64,000 bases of DNA from a virus: positions 32,001 through 96,000 of IMG/VR virus record IMGVR_UViG_3300032315_000774. One strand, written 5' to 3'. This document shows, one piece after another, positions 12,023 through 33,473 of this stretch. Within the stretch, counting starts at the first letter, position 1, and each line of letters begins with the position of its first letter. The notes under the pieces are model-generated. The model searched no databases. It saw only the letters and a list, made by a program, of their open reading frames with translations, and was not told the origin of the DNA. Both the position numbers and the translations under genes were made by a program.

Positions 12023-12442
12023 AGGTCACCCCAGGTAGTAGTCGAGGTACACAACGTCGTCGCTCGCGACGACGTTGAACGGAGGTCCCTCGCCACGCTC
12101 GATCAGCGCCTGCAGCGTCGGCACCATGCTCAGGTCGACCTTGTTGACGCCATGCTCGCGCAAGTCGCCCGCGATCATCTGAACGAACACAGCCCAGCAG
12201 TCACGAGGCGGCCACTTCGCAATCTCTTCGTCGTCCCACGCACCGAAGTCGCCAAGCCACTCGCGAAGTGCGGCGAGCGGTGGCGGTTCGGAGACCAACC
12301 ACGAGCTGCGCTTCTTGGCGATGTCACGCGCGTGCTTGTACGTGATCTCTCCGGCCTTCTCGCCCAGCTCCATGACGGAAGCGGAGCAGACGCGCGGGTC
12401 GAACTGCGAGAACATCTTGGTGAGGTTGATTCGAATGTTCAC

Positions 12443-12514
12443 CAGGGCCGGAGAGATTCGAACTCTCGTCGTCGGTTTTGGAAACCGCTGCACTGACCGC
12501 TGTGCTACGACCCT
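12443..12514 (-). tRNA. tRNA-Trp(CCA)
   Basis: Cloverleaf; anticodon loop TTCCAAA; T loop TTCGAAT; G27.A43 mismatch. Confidence 0.9.
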
Positions 12515-12519
12515 ATCAT

Positions 12520-12590
12520 CAGGGGCTGAAGGACTCGAACCTTCTTACGCGGATTCAAAGTCCGCTGCTCAACCCATGAGCCAAACCCCT
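12520..12590 (-). tRNA. tRNA-Gln(TTG)
   Basis: GCGGA-CTTTGAA-TCCGC arm; T loop TTCGAGT. Confidence 0.85.
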
Positions 12591-12960
12591 GCGCTACGTG
12601 TACCACGTCAGCGACGCGGTGTCTTGCTTCCTGTGTAGCCCTGACGCGCCCACGCGAGGCCCGTCGGCGTCCACTGCCCTTCGGGCGTCAGCACACGGCG
12701 CTCGACGAGCACAGCGTGCACACGGTCGACCTCGCCATCGCCGAACAGTGCTCGCAGCTCGGCCTCGGTCTCGGTCTCGGTCTTGTCGTGCAGCGCCTTC
12801 GCCAGCCGCACTTGCGTGAGCTTGCCAAGAGGCTTCGGCTGCAGTCGCTTCCGTGCAGCAGTCACGAGCTGTACCTTGCAGCTCAGCAAGCGCGCGATCT
12901 CCACGTCGCTCTTCGTCGCGTTCGCACGCACGAACTCCTGCACTTCGTGCGGCTCCAGAT

Positions 12961-21529: not shown

Positions 21530-22291
21530 TTACGCTCCGTTCAGGAACGTGAAGAGCTTGCTCGCGTCGAAGACACCCTCGACCTCGCGTGCGTTGGCCT
21601 CGGCGATGGCCGCCTTGGCCGCGTGCATCAGCTTCTCGATGCGTTCGATCAGCGCGGCCTTCTTGGCCTCGTCCCAAGCACCCGAGAGCTGGAACTCGGT
21701 CCAGCGGCCGATGCGCTTCTGCGTCTTGCGGACGGTGGTCTGCGCGGGGTGCTTGTCCGACGCCGGGACGACCACCACGACCTCGTCGATCGAGGTGAAC
21801 TTGTCGCGTGCGGTGGGTCCTGACGAGGCCACCGTCGCGACGGCGCCGCCGATCACCACGGTCTTCGTGGCGATGAAGTTGACCTGCGGGTTGCGCGTCG
21901 GGATGCGCTTCGCCTGCGCGTGGAGGTCGCGGAAGATCTTCTCCAGCGCGATCAGCGTCGTCGTGGGGAGCTTCACCGTCAGCGCCTGACCGTCGACGAC
22001 GATGGCCGCTGACGCGCTCTGGTTCGCCACGTCGCGCGTGGCCATCAGCTCGACGTGCTGTCGAGTCACGGTGAACGCGCGCTCCAAGATCAGGTCGACC
22101 GTCTGCTCGACCTGCTTCGACTCCGGAGGCAGCCGCTCGCCGTCGTCTTCCGTTGGCTGGTACGTGCGATCCAGCCCAGTGAACTTGTCGGGCTTGTCGA
22201 GCAGCTTGTAGCCGTCGCTGGTGACGCGGTTCGTGATCTCGGCCTGCGCCTTGACCTGGCCGACGAGCGCGGCGAGTTTGATCTTGTTCAT
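21530..22291 (-). CDS. conserved helical hypothetical protein (resembles the family I recall as DUF7873)
   Basis: AAGGAG RBS; FTGLDRTYQP...GERLPPE, A.KHPAQ, GRW....SGA, A..EAN motifs. Confidence 0.7.
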   Translation of the reverse strand: MNKIKLAALVGQVKAQAEITNRVTSDGYKLLDKPDKFTGLDRTYQPTEDDGERLPPESKQVEQTVDLILERAFTVTRQHVELMATRDVANQSASAAIVVDGQALTVKLPTTTLIALEKIFRDLHAQAKRIPTRNPQVNFIATKTVVIGGAVATVASSGPTARDKFTSIDEVVVVVPASDKHPAQTTVRKTQKRIGRWTEFQLSGAWDEAKKAALIERIEKLMHAAKAAIAEANAREVEGVFDASKLFTFLNGA

Positions 22292-22787: not shown

Positions 22788-23378
22788 TCAACCGCCTCCG
22801 AACACGCCCGAGCGCAAGATCGTCGACGACGTCTTCTGGCCCGAGCGCAAGAACGTCTGCACTGCCAACGCCAAGGACGCCGCGCTCTGCATGATGAGCG
22901 GCAAGAACTCGCCGGTCTCGCACGTCACCGCGCCCGCTGCCGCCTCGTCGGGGACGAACTGCGGCGACCACCGCACGACGCCCATCTCTCCGTTCGGAGC
23001 GAGCGCGCCGTGCACCAGAGGCACACCGTTCGCCGTCGCGAAGCTGATGAGCGTGCGTCGGGCTTCGATGTTGTCCGTCGCGTCGACCAGCAACGTCGGG
23101 TTGTGAAGCGTGGTCTTGACGTTGTCAGACGTGATCTTGCCCGGGGCTGCCACGTACGATGCGCGCGTTCGACCGAAGTTGAAGTTGGCGCTTCGGACGA
23201 ACGCTTGCGCCTTGTTCACGCCCAACGTCTGGGTGCTGAAGGCTTGCGTGGTGAGGTTCTTGGCTTCGACGCGGTCGAAGTCGACCAGCGTGAACGTCGC
23301 GTCTTCGTTGCGCAGGAGCATGGCCGCATTCGAGCCAAGAGCCCCTACGCCGATGATGTAGATGTGTGGCTGCTTCAT
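22788..23378 (-). CDS. E1-like ThiF-family adenylyltransferase
   Basis: IIGVGALGS, DFDRVEAKNLTTQ, NKA, VDATDN; candidate Cys in TCE. Confidence 0.9.
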   Translation of the reverse strand: MKQPHIYIIGVGALGSNAAMLLRNEDATFTLVDFDRVEAKNLTTQAFSTQTLGVNKAQAFVRSANFNFGRTRASYVAAPGKITSDNVKTTLHNPTLLVDATDNIEARRTLISFATANGVPLVHGALAPNGEMGVVRWSPQFVPDEAAAGAVTCETGEFLPLIMQSAASLALAVQTFLRSGQKTSSTILRSGVFGGG

Positions 23379-23395
23379 CGTCGCAGCATGACACA

Positions 23396-24082
23396 CTACG
23401 CTTTCACATGGAAGACGTTGGTGAACGCTTGATCGAGCGTATCTGCCAGACCGTGAACGTCTGATACGTGCATCCAACGTCCATACACACCTCGAAAGTG
23501 CGGAGAGTCGTCTGTGGTGAGCTGGATTTGAAGTTCTGAGTTCTTCGGTGTCGCTCCTCGAAGGAACGTCGCGTAAAGCACAGCTTTCCGCTTGTTCTCA
23601 CCGTAAACGACGAAGATGTAGAGATGGAACAGACCGACGAGGTACATCGGCGAGAAGGTCCGAGCTGTCGAACGGGTCTCCTCGTGCACGGTCAAGTGCA
23701 CCTGACGCTCACGCTCGGCGAACACTTCGATGATCTTCTTCATCTCTCGGCGGCGCGCGCCGAACCCGGCCATGTCCTCGTCCGACGGCCGCGTCGTCAC
23801 GTTGTAGCCCCAGCCTCCCGCGTACAGTCGCGACGAAGTGTCTCCGAGCAGTCGCGTCGAGGTGTCGTCGACTGGGAGCTTCATCAGCTCAGGTTGAGCA
23901 GCTTCGGACAGATCGTAGAGCAGCGTCCACGTGGGCATCAGCAACGCGTGAGGTACGAACAAGCCGTCACCTGCGTCTTGACCGTCTCTCCACGCGTTGA
24001 GCGTGTACTCGTTCCACGTGTCGGTCGTGGGAGTGCGGTCGCGGAAATCCTTCAGAAGCTGTTGGAAGTGAGCGTTGGTCAT
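23396..24082 (-). CDS. hypothetical protein
   Basis: 228-aa ORF preceded by TCGACA-17-TAGTGT. Confidence 0.6.
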   Translation of the reverse strand: MTNAHFQQLLKDFRDRTPTTDTWNEYTLNAWRDGQDAGDGLFVPHALLMPTWTLLYDLSEAAQPELMKLPVDDTSTRLLGDTSSRLYAGGWGYNVTTRPSDEDMAGFGARRREMKKIIEVFAERERQVHLTVHEETRSTARTFSPMYLVGLFHLYIFVVYGENKRKAVLYATFLRGATPKNSELQIQLTTDDSPHFRGVYGRWMHVSDVHGLADTLDQAFTNVFHVKA

Positions 24083-24089
24083 GCCCAGA

Positions 24090-24118
24090 CACTAGCGCGA
24101 AGCATGCGCTGTGTCGAA
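24090..24118 (-). promoter_or_regulatory. sigma70-like promoter TCGACA-N17-TAGTGT
   Basis: Canonical spacing; TAGTGT also precedes genes at about 1945, 23395 and 29347. Confidence 0.45.
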
Positions 24119-24120
24119 CA

Positions 24121-24750
24121 TCAGCGCTTGTCGCCTGAGCCACCGAGCGCGTTGCGCGCCTGCCGATCGAGCAGCTTCTGCTTGTTGCGCGCTGCTACTT
24201 CATGCAGCGACACAGTACACGTCGACTGCACGAAGTAGAACGCGTGCTGCAGTAACTCGAACATCTGCATCCTTCGATCGCTGATGTCGCCACGCGCGTC
24301 GCGGATCGTCTTCTTGCTGAGCCCTGCGAGCTGCCTGGTGATCTTCCTCAGATCGAGGTGATCCTGCGTCGTGACGATGGTCTGCGTCAGTCTCGCGGCT
24401 TCTTCGATGTGCAGGAGCTGCACGAGCTGCGACATGTACCAGAGGCAGTCTCCTGCTTCTGCGATGACCGCATCGACAACTTCGTCCCAGCGACTACTGC
24501 GCACGTTCGCTTGAATGTGCACATCTTGAAGCTCGTGCAGCTCTTCGATGAGACCCAGCACCAGATACACCCACGAGGTGTCGACGTCACCCACCATCAC
24601 TTGCGGGTAGATGGCCGTCGTTGGCGTGAACTCGCGGTACGCCTTACCTTCAGGTGAGAGCCAGAACTGGTAGAACGATACACGTTTCGTCTCTACTAGT
24701 TGAGTTACGCTCATGTCTTCTGCTCCTTCGCGCATTTGCCTTTGAGGCAC
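24121..24750 (-). CDS. MazG-like NTP pyrophosphohydrolase
   Basis: GLIEE, EAGDCLWY, NxxKLxDRxxRxxLxGSGDxR. Confidence 0.85.
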   Translation of the reverse strand: MPQRQMREGAEDMSVTQLVETKRVSFYQFWLSPEGKAYREFTPTTAIYPQVMVGDVDTSWVYLVLGLIEELHELQDVHIQANVRSSRWDEVVDAVIAEAGDCLWYMSQLVQLLHIEEAARLTQTIVTTQDHLDLRKITRQLAGLSKKTIRDARGDISDRRMQMFELLQHAFYFVQSTCTVSLHEVAARNKQKLLDRQARNALGGSGDKR

Positions 24751-24954
24751 ACCCAGCGCCCATCAGCATCTTTCGTCCAGCCTGCACGTTGACCTGGCTT
24801 CTTGCTGCCGCCAGCTTCGCCACCTTGACCTGTAGACGGCTCGTAGAAGCGCCGAAGTTTCTTGCAGACCGGACAGCGGTGCCGCAGCGCCTTGTTGTTT
24901 CGCATGGCTGTAAAGCCGAAGGGCGCTCGGTTCTTCGCCGAACGCCCTTCAAGC

Positions 24955-25308
24955 TCACTCGTCTTCGTCGTCCGAGTCCTCGTCGTCCTCGTCGTCTTCG
25001 TCGTCCTCGTCTTCGTCGTCTTCGTCCTCGTCTTCGAAGTCGTCGTCATCGACGTCGAGATCGTCGAGGTCGTCCTCGTCGTCCTCGTCCTTGTCCTCGG
25101 GGTCCTTGCCGGAGCCGAAAGGGACCTTGGGGCGGAGCATCACGCTCTCGGGCGTGGTCTCCGTCGCGGCGAAGCGCTCGATGACGAACGACTCGGGGAT
25201 GTGCTGGCCCGTCGTCTCGGCCGCGATGGCGCGGATCTGCGCGTCGGTGGCGTCTGCTTCGATCGTGTGCTCGTAGAGACGCCCGTCGAGTGTGATGCTC
25301 AGTCTCAT
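24955..25308 (-). CDS. ubiquitin-like (beta-grasp) protein ending ...RPKVPFG plus a ~50-aa Asp/Glu tail
   Basis: AAGGAG RBS; beta-beta-alpha-beta pattern over ~65 aa; adjacent JAB and nearby E1. Confidence 0.6.
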   Translation of the reverse strand: MRLSITLDGRLYEHTIEADATDAQIRAIAAETTGQHIPESFVIERFAATETTPESVMLRPKVPFGSGKDPEDKDEDDEDDLDDLDVDDDDFEDEDEDDEDEDDEDDEDDEDSDDEDE

Positions 25309-25652
25309 GTGTGCTCCTTCTTCTTGCCACGTGCTCGAAGTTCATCGAGCCATGACGTAGGCAAGACGTCCCTTACGACAGAACTCCAGGCGTCGTCAAA
25401 CGTCACCACGTACTGCTCGATGTGGCGACCGAACGCGATGTCGAGTGCTTCGAACGTCTCCAGGTCGATGGAACTCGGCACCGCACGTCCAGACCACGGA
25501 TGCAGATGCGCGACCGCGATCGACTGGTCACGCCGCGCCCACAGCTCGTCGAAGAACGTGCGCGAGTCGGGGATGTACGTCGACGTCGCGTCCGCTGGCT
25601 CGTGCCAGTAGACGGGCGCTCCGTCGACGAGGATGACCGCCAGCTCTCTCAC
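25305..25652 (-). CDS. JAB/MPN+ isopeptidase
   Basis: N-terminal E; HLHP...PSSID (HxHx7SxxD JAMM motif). Confidence 0.85.
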   Translation of the reverse strand: MRELAVILVDGAPVYWHEPADATSTYIPDSRTFFDELWARRDQSIAVAHLHPWSGRAVPSSIDLETFEALDIAFGRHIEQYVVTFDDAWSSVVRDVLPTSWLDELRARGKKKEHT

Positions 25653-26320
25653 GTGAGCAGCTTCTTCAGCGCGGCGACCGCTGCCGTCAGCGCAGGGCTG
25701 GTCAGCGGAGTCTCACACGCGACCGACAGCGACACGAGGTGCGTACGAGGGAAGTTCGACAGCATCTCCCTCTTCGAGACCATGTGAACTTCCACCACGA
25801 ATACGCCCTGTGTCGACTTGAGGACGGAACTCTTGAGCGCCTTGAGTTCGCTGAAGTCCTTTTGCTGAAGGACGAGCATCGCCCCGAACTCGGAGCAGTA
25901 CACCCAGTTGTCCGGATCGACGAACACGTACAGCTGCTGCTGCTTCGGCTGCGTCGACCAGTGCGTGAAGACCGTGACCGAAGGGCCTGTGCCGTACGTG
26001 ACCTGCTGGAAGCCGCCACGCGGCCCGAACTGCACGTCGGAAGGAGCGCCGAACTTCTGCTCCAGCTCGAACGGCGTGACGAACTCGCGGACGAGCCCGA
26101 ACTGCATCTTGCCGCTCGGTAGCGTCGTGTGCATCGGCTCGACCTTGCCGAGGTGCATCAGCGACTCGTAGCCCTCCATCTCGACCAAGATCGGGTAGCC
26201 CCAGCCGACGACCACGCGCGCGTTCTTGTCTTCGACCACCGACTGCCACGGCCCGAGGATCTTCTTCTCCTGCAGCTCGTTGATCTCGTCGTGCTCTGCC
26301 TTCATGTCCCGCTTGCTCAT
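25649..26320 (-). CDS. hypothetical protein
   Basis: 223-aa ORF coupled to JAB by GTGA overlap. Confidence 0.6.
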   Translation of the reverse strand: MSKRDMKAEHDEINELQEKKILGPWQSVVEDKNARVVVGWGYPILVEMEGYESLMHLGKVEPMHTTLPSGKMQFGLVREFVTPFELEQKFGAPSDVQFGPRGGFQQVTYGTGPSVTVFTHWSTQPKQQQLYVFVDPDNWVYCSEFGAMLVLQQKDFSELKALKSSVLKSTQGVFVVEVHMVSKREMLSNFPRTHLVSLSVACETPLTSPALTAAVAALKKLLT

Positions 26321-26329
26321 GATATTGTC

Positions 26330-27229
26330 TCACCCGTGCCGATAGATGACCAGACGTCCAAGGCGCTCGGCTTCGCGCACGACGGACGGCAGCGACTCCA
26401 GCGTCAGCCAGGTGTCGCCCTTCGTTCCTTCGTCTCACTCCTCGGAGTGGTACTCCGCGCGCAGACAGATGCCAGAGTCGACGACTCGCAAGCGCTCGTC
26501 GACGACACATGCGAGGCGCTGCCCGTCGACGACGTAACGCACGTCGTACGTCTGCAGCTCGCGCTGACGCGTGATCGAGAGCAGCGACGATCGCGTCACG
26601 GCCAGCGCGAGGCGCGCACGACCTTCGACTGTCGTCGCGAGTCGAGCAGCCTCTTCTGCTGCACGACGGGCGCGTTCGCGTGCGTCTGCAGCTTCTTGCT
26701 CGCGACGCAAGCGCTCCTGGTACTCGCGCGCTGCACGCTCACGCGCTTCACACACGCGCGTCAGGTCAGCGTGTACGTCGCACAAGATCGGCCGCCCTGT
26801 GAACGCGCGCTGCTCCTCGTACGCTTGGCGTGCGATGTCTTCGTCGCCCACGAGCATCGCGGCGCCGAGGCACACGACGTCAGGTCCCCAGACCGTCAAC
26901 TGGACACGCGTGAACGGTAGAACGTCTTGCGCCAAGAACACGCGCGTCACGAACGACGAGCCGATCTTCTTCGATCGACGCGTCAGCGCATGCTCTGTGC
27001 GCACCGTGCTCCCGACGAGGTAGCCGTGACGTGTGCGAACTTTCGGAGTCTCCGCCTCGCCTTCGAGCACGGCACGACGAGCCGCCACCTTCCACGCGTA
27101 GAAGCCGTGTGTTGGTGGCGCGCGATCGACTGTAAACGCTGACGAGTCCGGCAAGAAGATGCTTGGGCCTCCGAACCACGGAGCGGTGACGATGCGAGGT
27201 TCAGTCGACAGTAGTTCTTGCCAGCTCAC
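26330..27229 (-). CDS. putative E2-like conjugating protein with in-frame TGA at 26435-26437
   Basis: VVDSGICL resembles the E2 GxICL catalytic motif; frame continues 34 sense codons past the TGA and ends 9 nt before the next ATG. Confidence 0.55.
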
Positions 27230-27530
27230 GACAGCCTCGTACCACAGATGCCAGGCCGACTCGAACATCTGCATCGAGCGGGAGGAGGTGCGCCCAGAAG
27301 GCGTCGATGATGGCGTCATCTGTCTGTTCCGAGTGTGCTTGAACGAAAGCCTTGAGACGAGGCATCAGCTCGCGCAATCGCCTGTAGAAGCTCGCACGCG
27401 AGATGTCGAGACGTGTTGCTGCCAACGAACGCACGTTCCCTGCGAGGGCCAACTGGACAAAGAACAAGTCCTCGTCCAGCTGGCCCCGAGAAGCGCGTGC
27501 GACAGCTTGCAGCGCTTCACCGTACGTCAT
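27201..27530 (-). CDS. Fis-type HTH protein
   Basis: GNVRSLAATRLDISRASFYRRL matches the HTH_8 pattern. Confidence 0.65.
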   Translation of the reverse strand: MTYGEALQAVARASRGQLDEDLFFVQLALAGNVRSLAATRLDISRASFYRRLRELMPRLKAFVQAHSEQTDDAIIDAFWAHLLPLDADVRVGLASVVRGCRELARTTVD

Positions 27531-29311
27531 GCGCGTGCCCACACCGGCAGCGGGAGCAGCTTCGTCGCGGCGATCTGCTGCGCGAGGTCTGCACGCACCG
27601 TGGTCGTGGTCGACGACATCGGCGCCGACTCCATGAGGCGAGCCAGCGTGCGAGGCAGCGCGTACGCGTCCTCGATCGATGCCTGCGTCAGCTCGAAGTA
27701 CGGCACACCCGTGACCTGCGCCGCGCTTCGCCAGTAGCTCGGAACGCCCTTCACGCGGACCACTGGCATGCACACCACCGGCACGCCCCACCGCGCCATC
27801 GCGCGCTCCCACTGATCACGCGAGAAGCCCTCTTCCTCGTCGCCGATGAGCATCATGACGACGTCACCGCTCGGTCGCGGCACGCCACAGAGCGCCCCGA
27901 AGATCGATGCGTGCGTCGTCCCACCGCTCACCGACAGACCCCGGAACGACAGCTCGATCTCCGCTGCGGACGGCCCGCGCAGCTCCACGATCCGCGCGGT
28001 CGTGTTGAACGCCACGACCGTCACCTTGTCGAGAGGCAACGCCGTCAGGATGCGCCGAAGCGTTTGCTTCGCGACCTCGATGGCGTTCTGCATGCTCGGC
28101 GAGATGTCGAGCACCATCACCACGTGGAGGTCGTGCAGCGCCTTCTCCGTCACCGTTCGAGCTGCCGCCGACGCAGCGGCCTCCAGCTTCGCCTGGACGT
28201 CGCTCCGCGTGACCCGCGTGGCGATGTTCGCCGCCCGCATGTCCTCCGATGCCTTCAGCGCCGCCTCCCATGCCGTCTTCACGACGGGCACGTCGAGCAC
28301 GCCCAGCTCTTCGAGCGTCGGCGTCAGGATGACCAGCTCCTTCGGCGAGACCCCGCCCGCCTGGACCGCCGCGACCATCACGGCACGCGTCAGCTGCTCG
28401 CTCTTGAGCGCACCCGTGAGCTGCCGCCACGACGGCCGCTCCGTCTGGATGCGCTCGCACACCTGGCGCTCGGTCAGGTCGTGCCACGACGCCAGCTTGT
28501 CCCAGGCGACGCCCACGGCCACCGTGCGCATGCCGACTGCATCGGGCGACTGCTTCCAGCGCAGCGCCTTGTAGAACGCCTCAGAGCCCTTGTAGCGGCT
28601 CAGCGACGCCAACCGCATGATCGAGCGGCGGAAGCCCGCGCGCACGAGCCCGGCCAGCATGCGCGGGTTGTCCGTCCGGTAGTCGAGCCAGCGGTGGATC
28701 GCCGCGTCCCAGCGCCCCTTGGTGCTGAACCCGGCACGCCGGTTGATCTCGCGCACCTTCGGCGTCATCAACAGCGCGTGCACCTGGAGGAGCATGCGCG
28801 GGTTGAAGTCGCGGTCCTTCGCGAGCGTCAGGATCATCGCCTCACCGACCGCACGGAAGTCGTCGTCTCGAACCTTCTCCCCTGCCAGCTCGATCGTCTG
28901 ACCGCTGCGCTCCTGCACCAGCATGAACGCCGCGAGCGCGATCTTGAGGTCGCGGTGCTCCTGCGCGAACGCCCACGAAGCCCACTTCGCGGCGAACAGC
29001 TGGTCGAGCTTGTAGACCTCGTAGATCTGCGTGTACACACGCTCGGCCGTCGCCTCGTGCACGCCAGGCTCGACGATTGACGCGACGCGGCGTGCACCCT
29101 GCACGACGTGCTTGCCATCGTCAGAGAGCTTCCCGAGGCTCACGTGGCGCTTCTTCTGCGAGATGTCGAATACCTCGCCGTCGGACTTGATCTTGATGGG
29201 CTTCCAGACGCCGCCCACGTCGACGCCAGGGCGCCCGTGGTACGTGTGTTGGGTGTCGGCGATGAGCGAGCGGATGATGCGATCCGCTGCGCTGAGTGCT
29301 GCGTTCTCCAT
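27527..29311 (-). CDS. large helical + vWA domain protein (possibly Ro60/TROVE-like)
   Basis: MIDAS DISPS, VVAFN, GGTT, IGDEE at the C-terminus; long alpha-helical N-terminal region. Confidence 0.75.
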   Translation of the reverse strand: MENAALSAADRIIRSLIADTQHTYHGRPGVDVGGVWKPIKIKSDGEVFDISQKKRHVSLGKLSDDGKHVVQGARRVASIVEPGVHEATAERVYTQIYEVYKLDQLFAAKWASWAFAQEHRDLKIALAAFMLVQERSGQTIELAGEKVRDDDFRAVGEAMILTLAKDRDFNPRMLLQVHALLMTPKVREINRRAGFSTKGRWDAAIHRWLDYRTDNPRMLAGLVRAGFRRSIMRLASLSRYKGSEAFYKALRWKQSPDAVGMRTVAVGVAWDKLASWHDLTERQVCERIQTERPSWRQLTGALKSEQLTRAVMVAAVQAGGVSPKELVILTPTLEELGVLDVPVVKTAWEAALKASEDMRAANIATRVTRSDVQAKLEAAASAAARTVTEKALHDLHVVMVLDISPSMQNAIEVAKQTLRRILTALPLDKVTVVAFNTTARIVELRGPSAAEIELSFRGLSVSGGTTHASIFGALCGVPRPSGDVVMMLIGDEEEGFSRDQWERAMARWGVPVVCMPVVRVKGVPSYWRSAAQVTGVPYFELTQASIEDAYALPRTLARLMESAPMSSTTTTVRADLAQQIAATKLLPLPVWARA

Positions 29312-30019
29312 GCCGCAGTCTCTACGTGAGACGCTTGCTGCCGTCAACACTACCGATACAAGAACATCATGCTTGATGTATCGGAATCGCCACCTCGGAC
29401 TCCCGTGCAGCTTCGTCCGCCCATGCCTTCATCGCTTCAACCGTTCGCTTGTCGAGGCCAGGAAATCCAACCTCCAGAATGACGCACGCCATGCCGCAGA
29501 AGAACATGTACGCTTCGGTCATGTCTTGCGACGCCATCGGGTCTTTGGGAGTCGCCTGAAGAGCCAGCCGCGCTGCTAACACGCGCCCCGCTGTGGCGTA
29601 GAACTCTTGCTCGATGTCCGTCGCCATGTGCCCGAGCTTCTGTCGGAGCGCGTCTCGCTCTTGTCGGAGCTGTTCAAGTTCGGTCCGAAGTTCTTGCTCG
29701 GTCATGTGCTTCTACTAGCACAGCTCGACAGCCATCCGCACCAGCAGTCGCTTGTCGTCTGCACGCAAGAACAGCTGCGCTGCTTCCAGCGGCAAGTTGC
29801 AGGCGATACACCGCATCTGACCAGAAGCCGCATCGGGCTCGTACACATAGAACGTGTACATGTACTTCGGCTTTGCGACTGACGGCTCCGACAGCAGAGA
29901 GGGGGACTTCGGCGCTGGTTTGCAGGCTTCGTCGAGAAGCTGACGATGCTTCTTGATCGCGTCCAGTATGTTCGGGTCGTCGTAAGCGACTTGCGCCTTG
30001 AACGCCCACGCTGGCTTGC

Positions 30020-30814: not shown

Positions 30815-30888
30815 TGCTCGGAGAGGGATTCGAACCCCCAACAACTAGATCCTGAATCTAGCGCGACTACCAGTTGCGCCACCCGAGC
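30815..30888 (-). tRNA. tRNA-Leu(CAG), short variable loop
   Basis: CTAGA-TTCAGGA-TCTAG. Confidence 0.9.
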
Positions 30889-30892
30889 GATG

Positions 30893-30966
30893 TGCTCACG
30901 AAGAGATTCGAACTCTTACAATGCGGTGTTTGAAGCCGCCACGTCTACCAGTTGCGTCACGTGAGC
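30893..30966 (-). tRNA. tRNA-Leu(CAA), short variable loop
   Basis: GCGGC-TTCAAAC-ACCGC. Confidence 0.85.
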
Positions 30967-30968
30967 GA

Positions 30969-31042
30969 TGCCTAGGAGAGGATTCGAACCTCCACGTTAC
31001 AGACCCTCAGTCTGCTGCGTCTACCAGTTGCGCCACCTAGGC
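30969..31042 (-). tRNA. tRNA-Leu(GAG), short variable loop
   Basis: GCAGA-CTGAGGG-TCTGT. Confidence 0.9.
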
Positions 31043-31189
31043 AACCTCACAGCGAGCGCTCGCTGTGAGTGACCGTGTGTGCAGTGTGCACTGCTCAGCG
31101 GCCAGGCGGTCTCCCCTGGCCTTGATGACGCGTCTCGAAGTACAGAGCTGGCGGACTGGATACCGCTCGGGTGTACTTGATCAACGTCA

Positions 31190-31236
31190 TCGGTAGACAC
31201 GATGTGTTTCGGCCTTCTGGCCATCTTCAGTACCGA
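31190..31236 (-). ncRNA. type I hammerhead ribozyme
   Basis: TCGGTA-CTGAAGA-T-GGCC(AGAA)GGCC-GAA-ACAC(ATC)GTGT-C-TACCGA: complete core, three stems, GUC site. Confidence 0.85.
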
Positions 31237-31237
31237 G

Positions 31238-31310
31238 TGGAGGTGACAGGGATCGAACCTGCGACATTCGGCTTGCAAAGCCGACGCTCTCCCAGCTGAG
31301 CTACACCCCC
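31238..31310 (-). tRNA. tRNA-Ala(TGC)
   Basis: Cloverleaf with G3.U70. Confidence 0.95.
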
Positions 31311-31315
31311 ATGTG

Positions 31316-31388
31316 TTACGAGGACAGGATTCGAACCTGCGACCCGAGTCTTGTAAGGACCCCGCTCTGCCAACTGAGCTACCCCGCA
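31316..31388 (-). tRNA. tRNA-Val(TAC)
   Basis: GGGTC-CTTACAA-GACTC. Confidence 0.9.
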
Positions 31389-31461
31389 TGACGAGAGCAG
31401 GCATCGAACCTGCGACCTCCGGCTTTTCAGACCAGCGCTCTACCAACTGAGCTATCTCGTC
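31389..31461 (-). tRNA. tRNA-Phe(GAA)
   Basis: CTGGT-CTGAAAA-GCCGG. Confidence 0.9.
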
Positions 31462-31467
31462 GATCTT

Positions 31468-31552
31468 CGGAACCAGGAGGGATCGAACCTCCGCACGCTT
31501 TCGCGTGGCTACGGTTTAGCAAACCGCCCTGTTACCTCTCCAGCATGGTTCC
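31468..31552 (-). tRNA. tRNA-Ser(GCT)
   Basis: Loop TTGCTAA, long variable arm. Confidence 0.9.
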
Positions 31553-31556
31553 ATGA

Positions 31557-31628
31557 CGCCGCGTAGGAGAATCGAACTCCTCTTAGTTCCGCAGACAACG
31601 GAGTGTACTCCCAGAGTACGAACGCGGC
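31557..31628 (-). tRNA. tRNA-Asp(GTC)
   Basis: Loop TTGTCTG. Confidence 0.85.
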
Positions 31629-31637
31629 AAGAGACAG

Positions 31638-31712
31638 GAGGTATGACGGGGCTCGAACCCGCTAAAGGCAGCTCCACAAGCTGCTGCTTCGACCGCTTCA
31701 GCTTCATACCTC
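31638..31712 (-). tRNA. tRNA-His(GTG)
   Basis: Loop TTGTGGA; encoded G-1:C73. Confidence 0.9.
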
Positions 31713-31716
31713 ACAC

Positions 31717-31788
31717 AGACGCCGACTGGACTTGAACCAGCATATACAAGGACTGCAGCCTTGCGCCTCACCATTCGGCCACAGCGTC
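31717..31788 (-). tRNA. tRNA-Cys(GCA)
   Basis: CAAGG-CTGCAGT-CCTTG; U73. Confidence 0.9.
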
Positions 31789-31799
31789 ATGAACCCTGA

Positions 31800-31872
31800 T
31801 CGAGGCGAGAGGATTCGAACCTCCGACCCTCTGCTCCCAAAGCAGATGCGCTACCAACTGCGCTACACCTCG
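31800..31872 (-). tRNA. tRNA-Pro(TGG)
   Basis: TCTGC-TTTGGGA-GCAGA. Confidence 0.95.
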
Positions 31873-31875
31873 AAG

Positions 31876-31949
31876 AACTCCTGACGGGATTCGAACCCGC
31901 GATTGCCGCCGTGAGAAGGCGGTGGCTTGAGCCGCTTGCCAACAGGAGC
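31876..31949 (-). tRNA. tRNA-Glu(CTC)
   Basis: CCGCC-TTCTCAC-GGCGG. Confidence 0.9.
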
Positions 31950-31957
31950 GAAGAACA

Positions 31958-32029
31958 CGGGCACATGAAGATTTGAACTCCAACTTCAGGGTTCGTAGCC
32001 CTGCGACCTATCCGTTAGTCGATGCGCCC
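31958..32029 (-). tRNA. tRNA-Arg(ACG)
   Basis: CAGGG-CTACGAA-CCCTG. Confidence 0.9.
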
Positions 32030-32033
32030 CATG

Positions 32034-32107
32034 TGTGACAAGCAGGAGTTGAACCTGCGACCTCATGCTTATCAGGCATGCGCTCTGACCACCTGAGCTA
32101 CTGTCAC
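32034..32107 (-). tRNA. tRNA-Ile(GAT)
   Basis: CATGC-CTGATAA-GCATG. Confidence 0.95.
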
Positions 32108-32115
32108 GTGCGAAC

Positions 32116-32188
32116 AGCGTGTGGCGAGGTTCGAACTCGCGACCTACGACTTGGAAGGACGTCGCTCTGCCAACTGAGCTACACACGC
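32116..32188 (-). tRNA. tRNA-Gly(TCC)
   Basis: Loop CTTCCAA; one mismatch in the anticodon stem. Confidence 0.85.
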
Positions 32189-32192
32189 GAAG

Positions 32193-32395
32193 CGCCTCTG
32201 ACGGGACTTGAACCCGCAAACGACTAGATGAGAGCAACCGTGAAGCCTCTCTCTTCTCTGCACCGCCTTGGAGAATGGCCTTCCCTAAGCTGAGCATGGA
32301 GACCCAGTTCGGTGAGCAATCGCAACCGTAGGGCAGTGCAGTTATGTCTCCACCTTCCGTTTTAGGTGAGCCTGTTCCATTTCGGCTTCAGAGGC
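32193..32395 (-). ncRNA. tRNA scaffold (acceptor, D and T arms) carrying a ~130-nt structured insert
   Basis: GCCTCTG/CAGAGGC, GCC-GAAATGGAACA-GGC, GCGGG-TTCAAGT-CCCGT; 152 nt between the D and T arms. Confidence 0.75.
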
Positions 32396-32397
32396 GA

Positions 32398-32464
32398 AAG
32401 CAGAGGATGGAATCGAACCATCGAGCAACGGCTTATGAGGCCGCGCAGCACCTTGCGCTCTGCT
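32398..32464 (-). tRNA. tRNA-Met/Ile2(CAT) with truncated D arm
   Basis: GCGGC-CTCATAA-GCCGT; only 67 nt. Confidence 0.75.
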
Positions 32465-32473
32465 ACGAGCACA

Positions 32474-32546
32474 CGCATGCGACAGGGATCGAACCTGCGA
32501 CCCTCGGCTTAGAAGGCCGACGCTCTTCCAGCTGAGCTACACATGC
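32474..32546 (-). tRNA. tRNA-Arg(TCT)
   Basis: TCGGC-CTTCTAA-GCCGA. Confidence 0.95.
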
Positions 32547-32549
32547 AAG

Positions 32550-32622
32550 AGCCTGCTACCGGAGTCGAACCGATGACCAGCTGTTTACAAAACAGCTGCT
32601 CTACCAACTGAGCTAAGCAGGC
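32550..32622 (-). tRNA. tRNA-Thr(TGT)
   Basis: GCTGT-TTTGTAA-ACAGC. Confidence 0.95.
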
Positions 32623-32628
32623 GAGAAG

Positions 32629-32701
32629 TACCCCCAAGGAGATTCGAACTCCTGTCGCCGGGGTGAAAACCCAGCATCCTTGGCCACTAGAAGATGGGGG
32701 C
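32629..32701 (-). tRNA. tRNA-Glu(TTC)
   Basis: CTGGG-TTTTCAC-CCCGG. Confidence 0.9.
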
Positions 32702-32706
32702 GCGCA

Positions 32707-32779
32707 TTGTCACACCAGGAGTCGAACCTGGAACCCGCAGATTCAGAATCTGCTGCTCTACCAGTTGAGCTATGTGACA
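32707..32779 (-). tRNA. tRNA-Gln(CTG)
   Basis: GCAGA-TTCTGAA-TCTGC. Confidence 0.9.
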
Positions 32780-32782
32780 TCA

Positions 32783-32867
32783 CGGAAGGTAAAGGGATCG
32801 AACCTCTGCAGACTTTCGCCTGTCACCGATTTTCAAGACCGGAGCCTTACCACTCGGCCAACCTTCC
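32783..32867 (-). tRNA. tRNA-Ser(TGA)
   Basis: Loop CTTGAAA, long variable arm. Confidence 0.9.
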
Positions 32868-32870
32868 AGA

Positions 32871-33120
32871 GCCGGAAAACGCACCGAGGCGTGAGCAAAA
32901 CGCTTCGATGCGTTTTCCGGCAGACACGAGAATCCTGTGAACACAACAGAGCTTTCAGCTGTCCACAATGATCCTCATCAACCGCTTCATGAAACGCGAA
33001 GTCTCGCTGTCGCACCACAACAGCGCCCAAGACACCAGTGGTGTCTTCTTGCTCCGTGCAGGAGCATGCTCCTTTGGGAGAGGAGCACGTTCAGAACTAC
33101 AACTATCTCGTTGCAGCCGT
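32871..33120 (-). ncRNA. hairpin-rich putative ncRNA within the tRNA cluster
   Basis: At least five short consecutive hairpins plus a ~21-bp stem at 32871-32921; no credible ORF. Confidence 0.5.
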
Positions 33121-33130
33121 CAAGTTTGCA

Positions 33131-33203
33131 TGGGAGCGATAGGAGTCGAACCTACAACCCGCAGTGTAAAAATCTGCTTCTCTACCAGTTGAGTTACGCT
33201 CCC
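33131..33203 (-). tRNA. tRNA-Lys(TTT)
   Basis: Loop TTTTTAC; A31.A39 mismatch. Confidence 0.85.
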
Positions 33204-33208
33204 GACAG

Positions 33209-33282
33209 TGGAGACGACAGGAATCGAACCTGCGTTTAGACGGGGTAAGAACCCGCTGCAACCCAGCTTTTGCTAAGTCTCC
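33209..33282 (-). tRNA. tRNA-Lys(CTT)
   Basis: GCGGG-TTCTTAC-CCCGT. Confidence 0.85.
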
Positions 33283-33285
33283 GAA

Positions 33286-33358
33286 CGAGGCGCACAGGAA
33301 TCGAACCTGCAACCCGCAGACTAACAATCTGCCGCTCTACCAGTTGAGCTAACGCCTC
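33286..33358 (-). tRNA. tRNA-Asn(GTT)
   Basis: GCAGA-TTGTTAG-TCTGC. Confidence 0.9.
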
Positions 33359-33387
33359 AAGAATGACTCGTCTTCGATTGTCAGAGA

Positions 33388-33473
33388 TGGAGCAGGAGGG
33401 AGTCGAACCCCAGCCTCGAAAGGCGGCCCGGTTTACAGCCGGGTTGAGCTACCAATGCCGCGTACCTTGCTCC
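33388..33473 (-). tRNA. tRNA-Tyr(GTA)
   Basis: CCCGG-CTGTAAA-CCGGG, variable arm. Confidence 0.85.

Follow-up and report, generated by a model that had tools for sequence, protein, structure and literature searches.

The window analysed here, 64,000 nucleotides of phage DNA corresponding to bases 32001-96000 of a 137,165-base record (62% G+C, estimated to be 61% complete), encompasses a cluster of minus-strand genes, one of which is interrupted by an in-frame stop codon. The interrupted gene encodes a conserved protein with an invariant cysteine (hereafter, the Cys protein) in a frame of 329 codons from the ATG at 27319 (26333..27319, minus strand), and no second copy of it was found in the 137-kb record. 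Read from this ATG, the frame proceeds through ...DSGICLRAEYHSEE to a TGA at codon 295 (26437..26435), continues for 34 sense codons, DEGTKGDTWLTLESLPSVVREAERLGRLVIYRHG (26434..26333), and closes at a second TGA (26332..26330), with the ATG of the next gene, at 26320, ten bases beyond. The sequence-only reading of this stretch had described the same arrangement of an interrupted frame, 34 further codons and a closing TGA, which our reading of the open frames confirmed on the minus strand. Upstream of the internal TGA lies the codon of the invariant Cys285 (26465..26467), embedded in a D-S/A-G-I/V-C-L motif evident in family alignments, and the second TGA is the proper stop of the gene, at the same place where the homologues end (...RHG/RHV). 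At the other end, the likely true start is not the ATG but a GTG at 27229 (27227-27229, minus strand), which is preceded by GAGG with a 5-nt spacer and yields MSWQELL..., resembling the homologue N-termini MSWQ/MGWxDLL; starting at ATG 27319 adds 30 residues that are absent from every homologue and disordered in the structural model.

The upstream neighbour of the Cys protein gene (27527..29350) encodes a 607-aa vWA-domain protein. Downstream, also on the minus strand, are genes for a 115-aa JAB/MPN-like protein (25305..25652), recognized by a weak Pfam match and, by eye, an HLH...SSID motif; a 117-aa ubiquitin-like (Ubl) small protein (24955..25308), in which an N-terminal part ending in ...RPKVPFG is followed by an acidic tail; and a 229-aa ThiF/E1-like adenylyltransferase (22788..23477). 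The entire set spans 22788-29350, with the small ...PFG protein between the JAB protein and the ThiF-type E1. We searched for the window neighbours by tblastn in 63 related loci, 62 of which came from a pattern scan of IMG/VR with the family alignment and one (L002) from a metagenome scan. Across these loci (L002-L064), the order vWA protein, Cys protein, JAB, ThiF is fixed, with the vWA and JAB genes syntenic in 61 of the 63 loci each and the ThiF gene in 58, and a relative of the small protein, queried with its first 70 residues, is present in 46.

The relatives of the small protein share a distinctive C-terminal motif, ...K(T/V)PFG, in 45 of 46 cases (the remaining one, in L059, reads RPKTEYG), and in most of them the chain terminates with the motif Gly or a few residues later. 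The window's own copy continues past ...RPKVPFG for about 50 residues of almost pure Asp/Glu. Judging by the protein sequences, such features are those of a ubiquitin-like protein that has a C-terminal Gly and is sometimes made as a precursor, and the acidic tail looks like a segment that would be removed by the neighbouring JAB protein; a Ubl precursor of this kind fits the adjacent JAB peptidase and ThiF-type E1. The proposal that the TGA-bearing gene belongs to the neighbourhood of a conjugation system is thus borne out, in that the ThiF, JAB and ...PFG proteins encoded nearby look like a Ubl/E1/JAB set. Taken together, the vWA protein, Cys protein, JAB, Ubl and E1 apparently form a conserved phage module, so far undescribed, which by its predicted gene content resembles a system for ubiquitin-like activation or conjugation. 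Operons of the E1/E2/JAB/Ubl type in bacteria and the Ubl-JAB pair of lambda-type tails have been described (Iyer, Burroughs & Aravind 2006, PMC1779556), and the portions of that article covered here do not mention vWA; for jumbo phages, the covered portions of a later survey mention only a MoxR-vWA pair and a Ter-system vWA (Iyer et al. 2021, PMC7824862). A search of the literature, covering article passages and abstracts, found no description of the vWA/Cys protein/JAB/Ubl/E1 phage module.

Three additional minus-strand genes are interspersed within the module in this phage, encoding a 223-aa protein (25649-26320), a MazG-like pyrophosphatase (24121-24750) and a 228-aa protein (23396-24082). 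By tblastn, none of them has a counterpart in any of the 63 loci, which makes them lineage-specific insertions. A gene for a DUF7873 protein (21530-22291, minus strand; Pfam E 3.4e-50) adjoins the ThiF gene and is found near the module in 3 of the 63 loci. An array of 25 tRNAs lies just upstream of the module (30815-33473, minus strand), with further tRNAs at 12442-12591 on the same strand, and in Virus Rctr197k (L065, 1-3260), a tRNA array occupies the same place relative to the presumed vWA homologue.

To delineate the family of the Cys protein, we searched with the read-through sequence and obtained 45 proteins at E ≤ 0.001, producing an alignment of 46 sequences. The contigs that carry these genes are mostly 100-600 kb in length, which places the family in large, uncultured phages. 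A scan of viral contigs with the single protein yielded no close relative, and a scan of metagenomes yielded one distant locus, L002; among deposited phages, only one distant match was found, to Virus Rctr197k, with 26% of the query covered at E 1e-6. In the deposited record of the latter (L065, KX853510.1; 3344-6240), the Cys protein homologue is unannotated, with an opposite-strand ORF called over it, and an upstream 1950-bp misc_feature, 'similar to conserved hypothetical protein', is located at the position of the window's vWA gene.

The 34 codons beyond the TGA had been taken to belong to the protein, and conservation across the family corroborates this assignment. All aligned homologues (45 of the 45 matches) run on through ...TLESLPxVIxEAxxxGxLVVxRH(V/G), and in each of the 63 loci the C-terminal domain is free of stops and reaches the same end. 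Of the 12 columns that are invariant in the 46-sequence alignment, 6 lie in the post-TGA segment (26333..26434, minus strand; GDTWLTLESLP...LVIYRHG), namely, L307, E308, L310, A317, L323 and R327. Cys285, for its part, is invariant both in this alignment and in a set of 57 sequences. In one locus (L030, 8001-8912 and 9574-9726), a second open stretch of 78 codons, downstream of the full gene, repeats the C-terminal segment with the Cys loop and LESLP, and may be a partial duplicate.

The Cys protein has no match to any Pfam, NCBIfam or PHROGs family; a profile search against PDB sequences gave only RNase P, at E 0.07, and a search of the ESM Atlas gave nothing useful. An AlphaFold2 model built on the family alignment (mean pLDDT 84.4, pTM 0.62) consists of two beta-barrels (approximately residues 40-161), a helix of about 50 residues (177-227) and a C-terminal domain (230-329) with a helix, a four-strand meander, the Cys285 loop, a low-confidence loop that contains the TGA site, and a final helix (310-320). 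Cys285 sits four residues past the strand 278-281, and the 34 post-TGA residues form the last helix and strand of the domain, which when folded alone reached a pLDDT of 79.7. Foldseek searches with the whole model and with the C-terminal domain returned no match at E ≤ 0.001. With VIA-align, the N-terminal barrels gave a middling match, with a Z of 6.1 and an rmsd of 3.5 across 106 residues, to the inter-domain (OB-type) of the proteasomal ATPase Mpa, and every match of the C-terminal domain had a Z below 5. The latter included RWD/UBC-like chains, namely, Ctf19-Mcm21, the FANCL central domain and Spc24-Spc25 (Z 3.3-4.0), as well as Ubc9 (4y1l_C; Z 3.6, rmsd 4.7 over 83 residues), with unrelated folds scoring equally high or higher.

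The designation of Cys285 as a putative E2 catalytic residue is an interpretation and not something seen in the sequence. The cysteine is invariant, but an E2 match was found in neither the sequence nor the fold searches: at E ≤ 1, 0 of the 46 family members match the UBC or Prok-E2 Pfam models. The models do show a UBC-like order of elements (helix, four-strand meander, Cys loop, helix), with weak fold matches. That the Cys protein is an E2 is a reasonable hypothesis, suggested by this topology, the invariant cysteine and the gene context, and short of demonstrated membership.

We then examined the base underlying the TGA in close relatives. Evidence at this level comes from a protein cluster and from the contigs of four sequencing runs, and the locus scans may omit records very near the window. 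Logan contigs of the four runs (X1, X2, X8 and X10) were compared with window positions 26100-26800. The contig from X1, the possible source run of this record, shows no differences over 701 bases, including the T at plus-strand position 26435, at a word depth of 12.8. The contigs from X2, X8 and X10, three studies other than the probable source, represent 98%-identical phages and have a C at this position, which gives TGG (Trp) on the coding strand, at word depths of 112.3, 30.8 and 4.4, respectively. Thus, only one of the four runs compared has the TGA. The X2 and X8 contigs differ from the window at 13 of the 701 positions, and that from X10, likewise, at 13 positions in a 582-nt piece. Sorted by codon, the 12 differences located within the compared part of the gene comprise 8 synonymous ones, 3 nonsynonymous ones (C190R, S245T and H291D) and the stop/Trp difference itself. 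The H/D difference, at 26449, is 14 bases from 26435 and is linked to the TGA allele, and the sole difference past the stop is a synonymous CTG/CTT in a Leu codon.

The same dichotomy is apparent at the protein level. A cluster at 90% identity includes four members, of which two, 294 and 279 aa long, match the window exactly and are truncated, and two are full length (one of 314 aa, the other of 329 aa and found on six contigs), reading ...SEEW-DEGTKGD or ...SDEW-DEGTKGD; members P0001 and P0048 have W in the TGA column. The truncated 294-aa ORF is recorded in JGI/IMG, Logan and ENA, with a longest contig of 154,698 bases, and for the 279-aa ORF the longest contig is 23,989 bases. Across the broader family, the TGA falls within a local insert between the Cys motif and GT(K/R)GD that is present in 14 of the 63 loci, all 14 of which have Phe in the W/TGA column; the remaining 49 loci have a gap there. 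No Cys was found in this column, either in the close relatives, which have Trp, or in the 14 insert-bearing loci. Given Trp in the close relatives and Phe in every insert-bearing locus, an aromatic residue is ancestral, and the TGA is derived by a single transition.

Accordingly, the idea that programmed readthrough or selenocysteine (Sec) insertion at this TGA gates the conjugation system can be set aside: the close relatives (X2, X8, X10; P0001, P0048) carry TGG or W. The position is a sense codon in these relatives, which refutes recoding, and no homologue ends there. The fallback offered in the sequence-only reading, a nonsense mutation from TGG, is instead supported by the TGG in 98%-identical phages from three other studies. 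We conclude that the TGA is, with high probability, a recent, strain-specific TGG>TGA nonsense allele.

Among the competing explanations, functional leaky readthrough, in which the UGA would be decoded by a host or phage tRNA-Trp and tolerated or selected as a means to tune the amount of the Cys protein, fares best, and is nonetheless unlikely. Several observations are compatible with it. The 34 downstream codons are intact, with the single synonymous difference from the TGG strains; the TGA allele is seen at a depth of 12.8 and in contigs of several sizes; the decoding of UGA as Trp has a precedent in phage Qbeta; and the phage encodes a tRNA-Trp with the anticodon CCA (12442..12515, minus strand), the only tRNA here able to misread UGA as Trp. 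However, the stop is not conserved, with TGG in 3 of 3 independent close relatives and a stop in 0 of 63 loci, and a recent mutation predicts the intact downstream region equally well.

The properties of the hairpin downstream of the TGA also count against readthrough. This element (26391..26419, minus strand) starts 15 nt past the TGA, overlaps the codons for G-D-T-W-L-T-L-E-S-L and pairs GGCGAC.CC.GGC with GCC.GG.GUCGCU around a UGAC loop. Folded alone, it has an energy of -14.1 kcal/mol and a z of -1.82, with 8 of 200 shuffles folding as well, for a stretch that was chosen because it is foldable; in a 101-nt context, the z rises to +0.65 and equally good folding is seen in 145 of 200 shuffles, so that the hairpin is no better than chance there. 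Its sequence is unchanged in the TGG strains, none of the 13 differences falling inside it, and in the 58 distinct sequences of the family that were compared, 6.9 of the 11 pairs can form on average, with at least 10 pairs in only 6 of the 58. Rfam gave no match beyond a chance miRNA hit at E 8.4. The hairpin, then, is a by-product of conserved codons in a GC-rich genome and not a conserved RNA element. The earlier description of a hairpin about 15 nt past the TGA was correct, but its lack of conservation, its identity in the TGG strains and the context z of +0.65 speak against the SECIS-like recoding role ascribed to it.

A sequencing or assembly error, with C (TGG) as the true base in this phage, is improbable. 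It gains some plausibility from the fact that the TGA appears in only one of the four runs compared, which is the possible source run, and that all assemblies of that sample share reads. Against this, the independent Logan assembly of X1 has the same base at a depth of 12.8 with no differences in 701 bases; contigs of two further sizes, drawn from three sources and possibly from shared samples, also carry the truncated ORF; and the linked H/D difference at 26449 marks a distinct haplotype rather than a lone miscall. The sequence-only reading had rated such an error on a par with a nonsense mutation. The nonsense mutation stands, and the error is the less likely of the two in view of the independent assembly and its depth.

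Insertion of Sec, with the downstream hairpin serving as a bacterial SECIS, has a negligible probability. The position of the hairpin, starting 15 nt past the UGA, is what speaks for it. The residue aligned with the TGA, however, is Trp or Phe (14 of 14 insert-bearing loci) and never Cys; the hairpin derives from conserved codons, its structure is not conserved and it has no Rfam match; the TGA site falls in a low-confidence loop of the model and does not coincide with the invariant Cys; and neither a tRNA-Sec nor a UCA anticodon is present among the 27 tRNAs, including one tRNA-Trp(CCA), that ARAGORN detected in the whole phage record. Genome-wide reassignment of TGA to sense (code 4/25-like) can be dismissed with equal assurance despite the fact that some large phages recode stop codons, because, of 183 open stretches that are 100 codons or longer and have GC3 ≥ 0.72, 119 end in TGA (TAG, 54; TAA, 10; a rough tally that includes some non-genes), the terminal TGA of the Cys protein gene itself falls exactly at the end of the homologues, and 0 of the 27 tRNAs have a UCA anticodon. 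TGA is, in fact, the commonest stop of this phage. The tally of stops alone was used for this purpose; a GC3-based scan for other interrupted genes was undiscriminating, flagging adjacent and antisense frames.

Returning to the nonsense allele, the coding strand would have undergone a G>A transition (plus-strand 26435, C>T) that converted the Trp codon TGG to TGA in one phage population. Translation would end 34 residues early, with the loss of the best-conserved part of a protein of approximately 300-330 aa, including the invariant LESLP motif as well as the last helix and strand, which are predicted to pack onto the Cys-bearing beta-meander. Because these elements are removed, the truncated product is most likely inactive, as judged from the model. 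Most likely, then, the allele as a whole has lost its function, or at most retains a little as a leaky hypomorph. No stop codon is leakier than UGA, which tRNA-Trp misreads at a low level; any residual function would come only from such ordinary misreading, by which the ancestral residue would be regained. The intact appearance of the downstream codons reflects how recent the change is and not maintenance by recoding.

Two observations sit less comfortably with a null allele. The TGA is present at a depth of 12.8 in X1 and the truncated ORF on contigs of 154,698 and 23,989 bases, which indicates that phages with this allele reached appreciable abundance; for a gene that 63 of 63 related loci retain, this is slightly unexpected of a null allele. 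In addition, the 34 downstream codons have incurred no further damage. A leaky hypomorph, in which misreading by the tRNA-Trp of the phage or the host would provide a small, tunable dose of the invariant-Cys protein, nevertheless appears quite improbable. If it did exist, strains would differ in how strongly the conjugation-like system is on.

The nonsense-allele reading has several practical consequences. The TGA is an event of an ordinary kind, not programmed readthrough, selenocysteine incorporation or an alternative code, and should not be counted as a case of any of these. In annotation, 26333..27319 should be treated as one gene, broken in this strain. More generally, where sister strains diverge by only 2%, an intact, codon-biased extension past a stop does not amount to evidence for recoding. 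The strain is a natural knockout of one component of the module, which could be useful if such phages are ever cultured. The gene context is more interesting than the TGA itself, inasmuch as the broken gene belongs to the core of a set conserved in large uncultured phages (58-61 of 63 loci).

In comparison with known systems, the module resembles the prokaryotic Ubl/E1/E2/JAB operons (PMC1779556, as far as covered here; Bil/Bub-type) in combining a ThiF-type E1, a JAB protein, a small protein that ends in Gly and another in which a Cys is invariant. It differs from these operons in being phage-borne and always accompanied by the 600-aa vWA protein, and in the architecture of the Cys protein, which has two N-terminal beta-barrels and a long helix, lacks a UBC/Prok-E2 sequence match (0 of 46) and is only weakly similar in fold (Z 3.3-4.0).

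With respect to the stop codon, the closest formal parallels are with two recoding systems. In bacterial SECIS-directed Sec insertion, exemplified by E. coli fdhF, as in the window, a UGA is followed by a hairpin at a short distance; unlike fdhF, however, the site described here has no Cys in the corresponding column, no tRNA-Sec in the record and a hairpin that is unconserved and at the level of chance in its context. In phage Qbeta, the UGA between the coat protein and its A1 extension is read through by tRNA-Trp; this stop is a conserved one, and the phage requires both products. Like it, the Cys protein gene is a phage gene in which an in-frame extension follows a UGA whose misreading would insert Trp, but none of the 3 close relatives and none of the 63 related loci has the stop, and the short product lacks the most conserved segment of the family. 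The best match is to ordinary opal alleles, from which the present case differs in being known from metagenome assemblies alone, and with which it shares the essential features: a single TGG->TGA transition in a conserved gene, an intact downstream region and the wild-type codon in sister strains.
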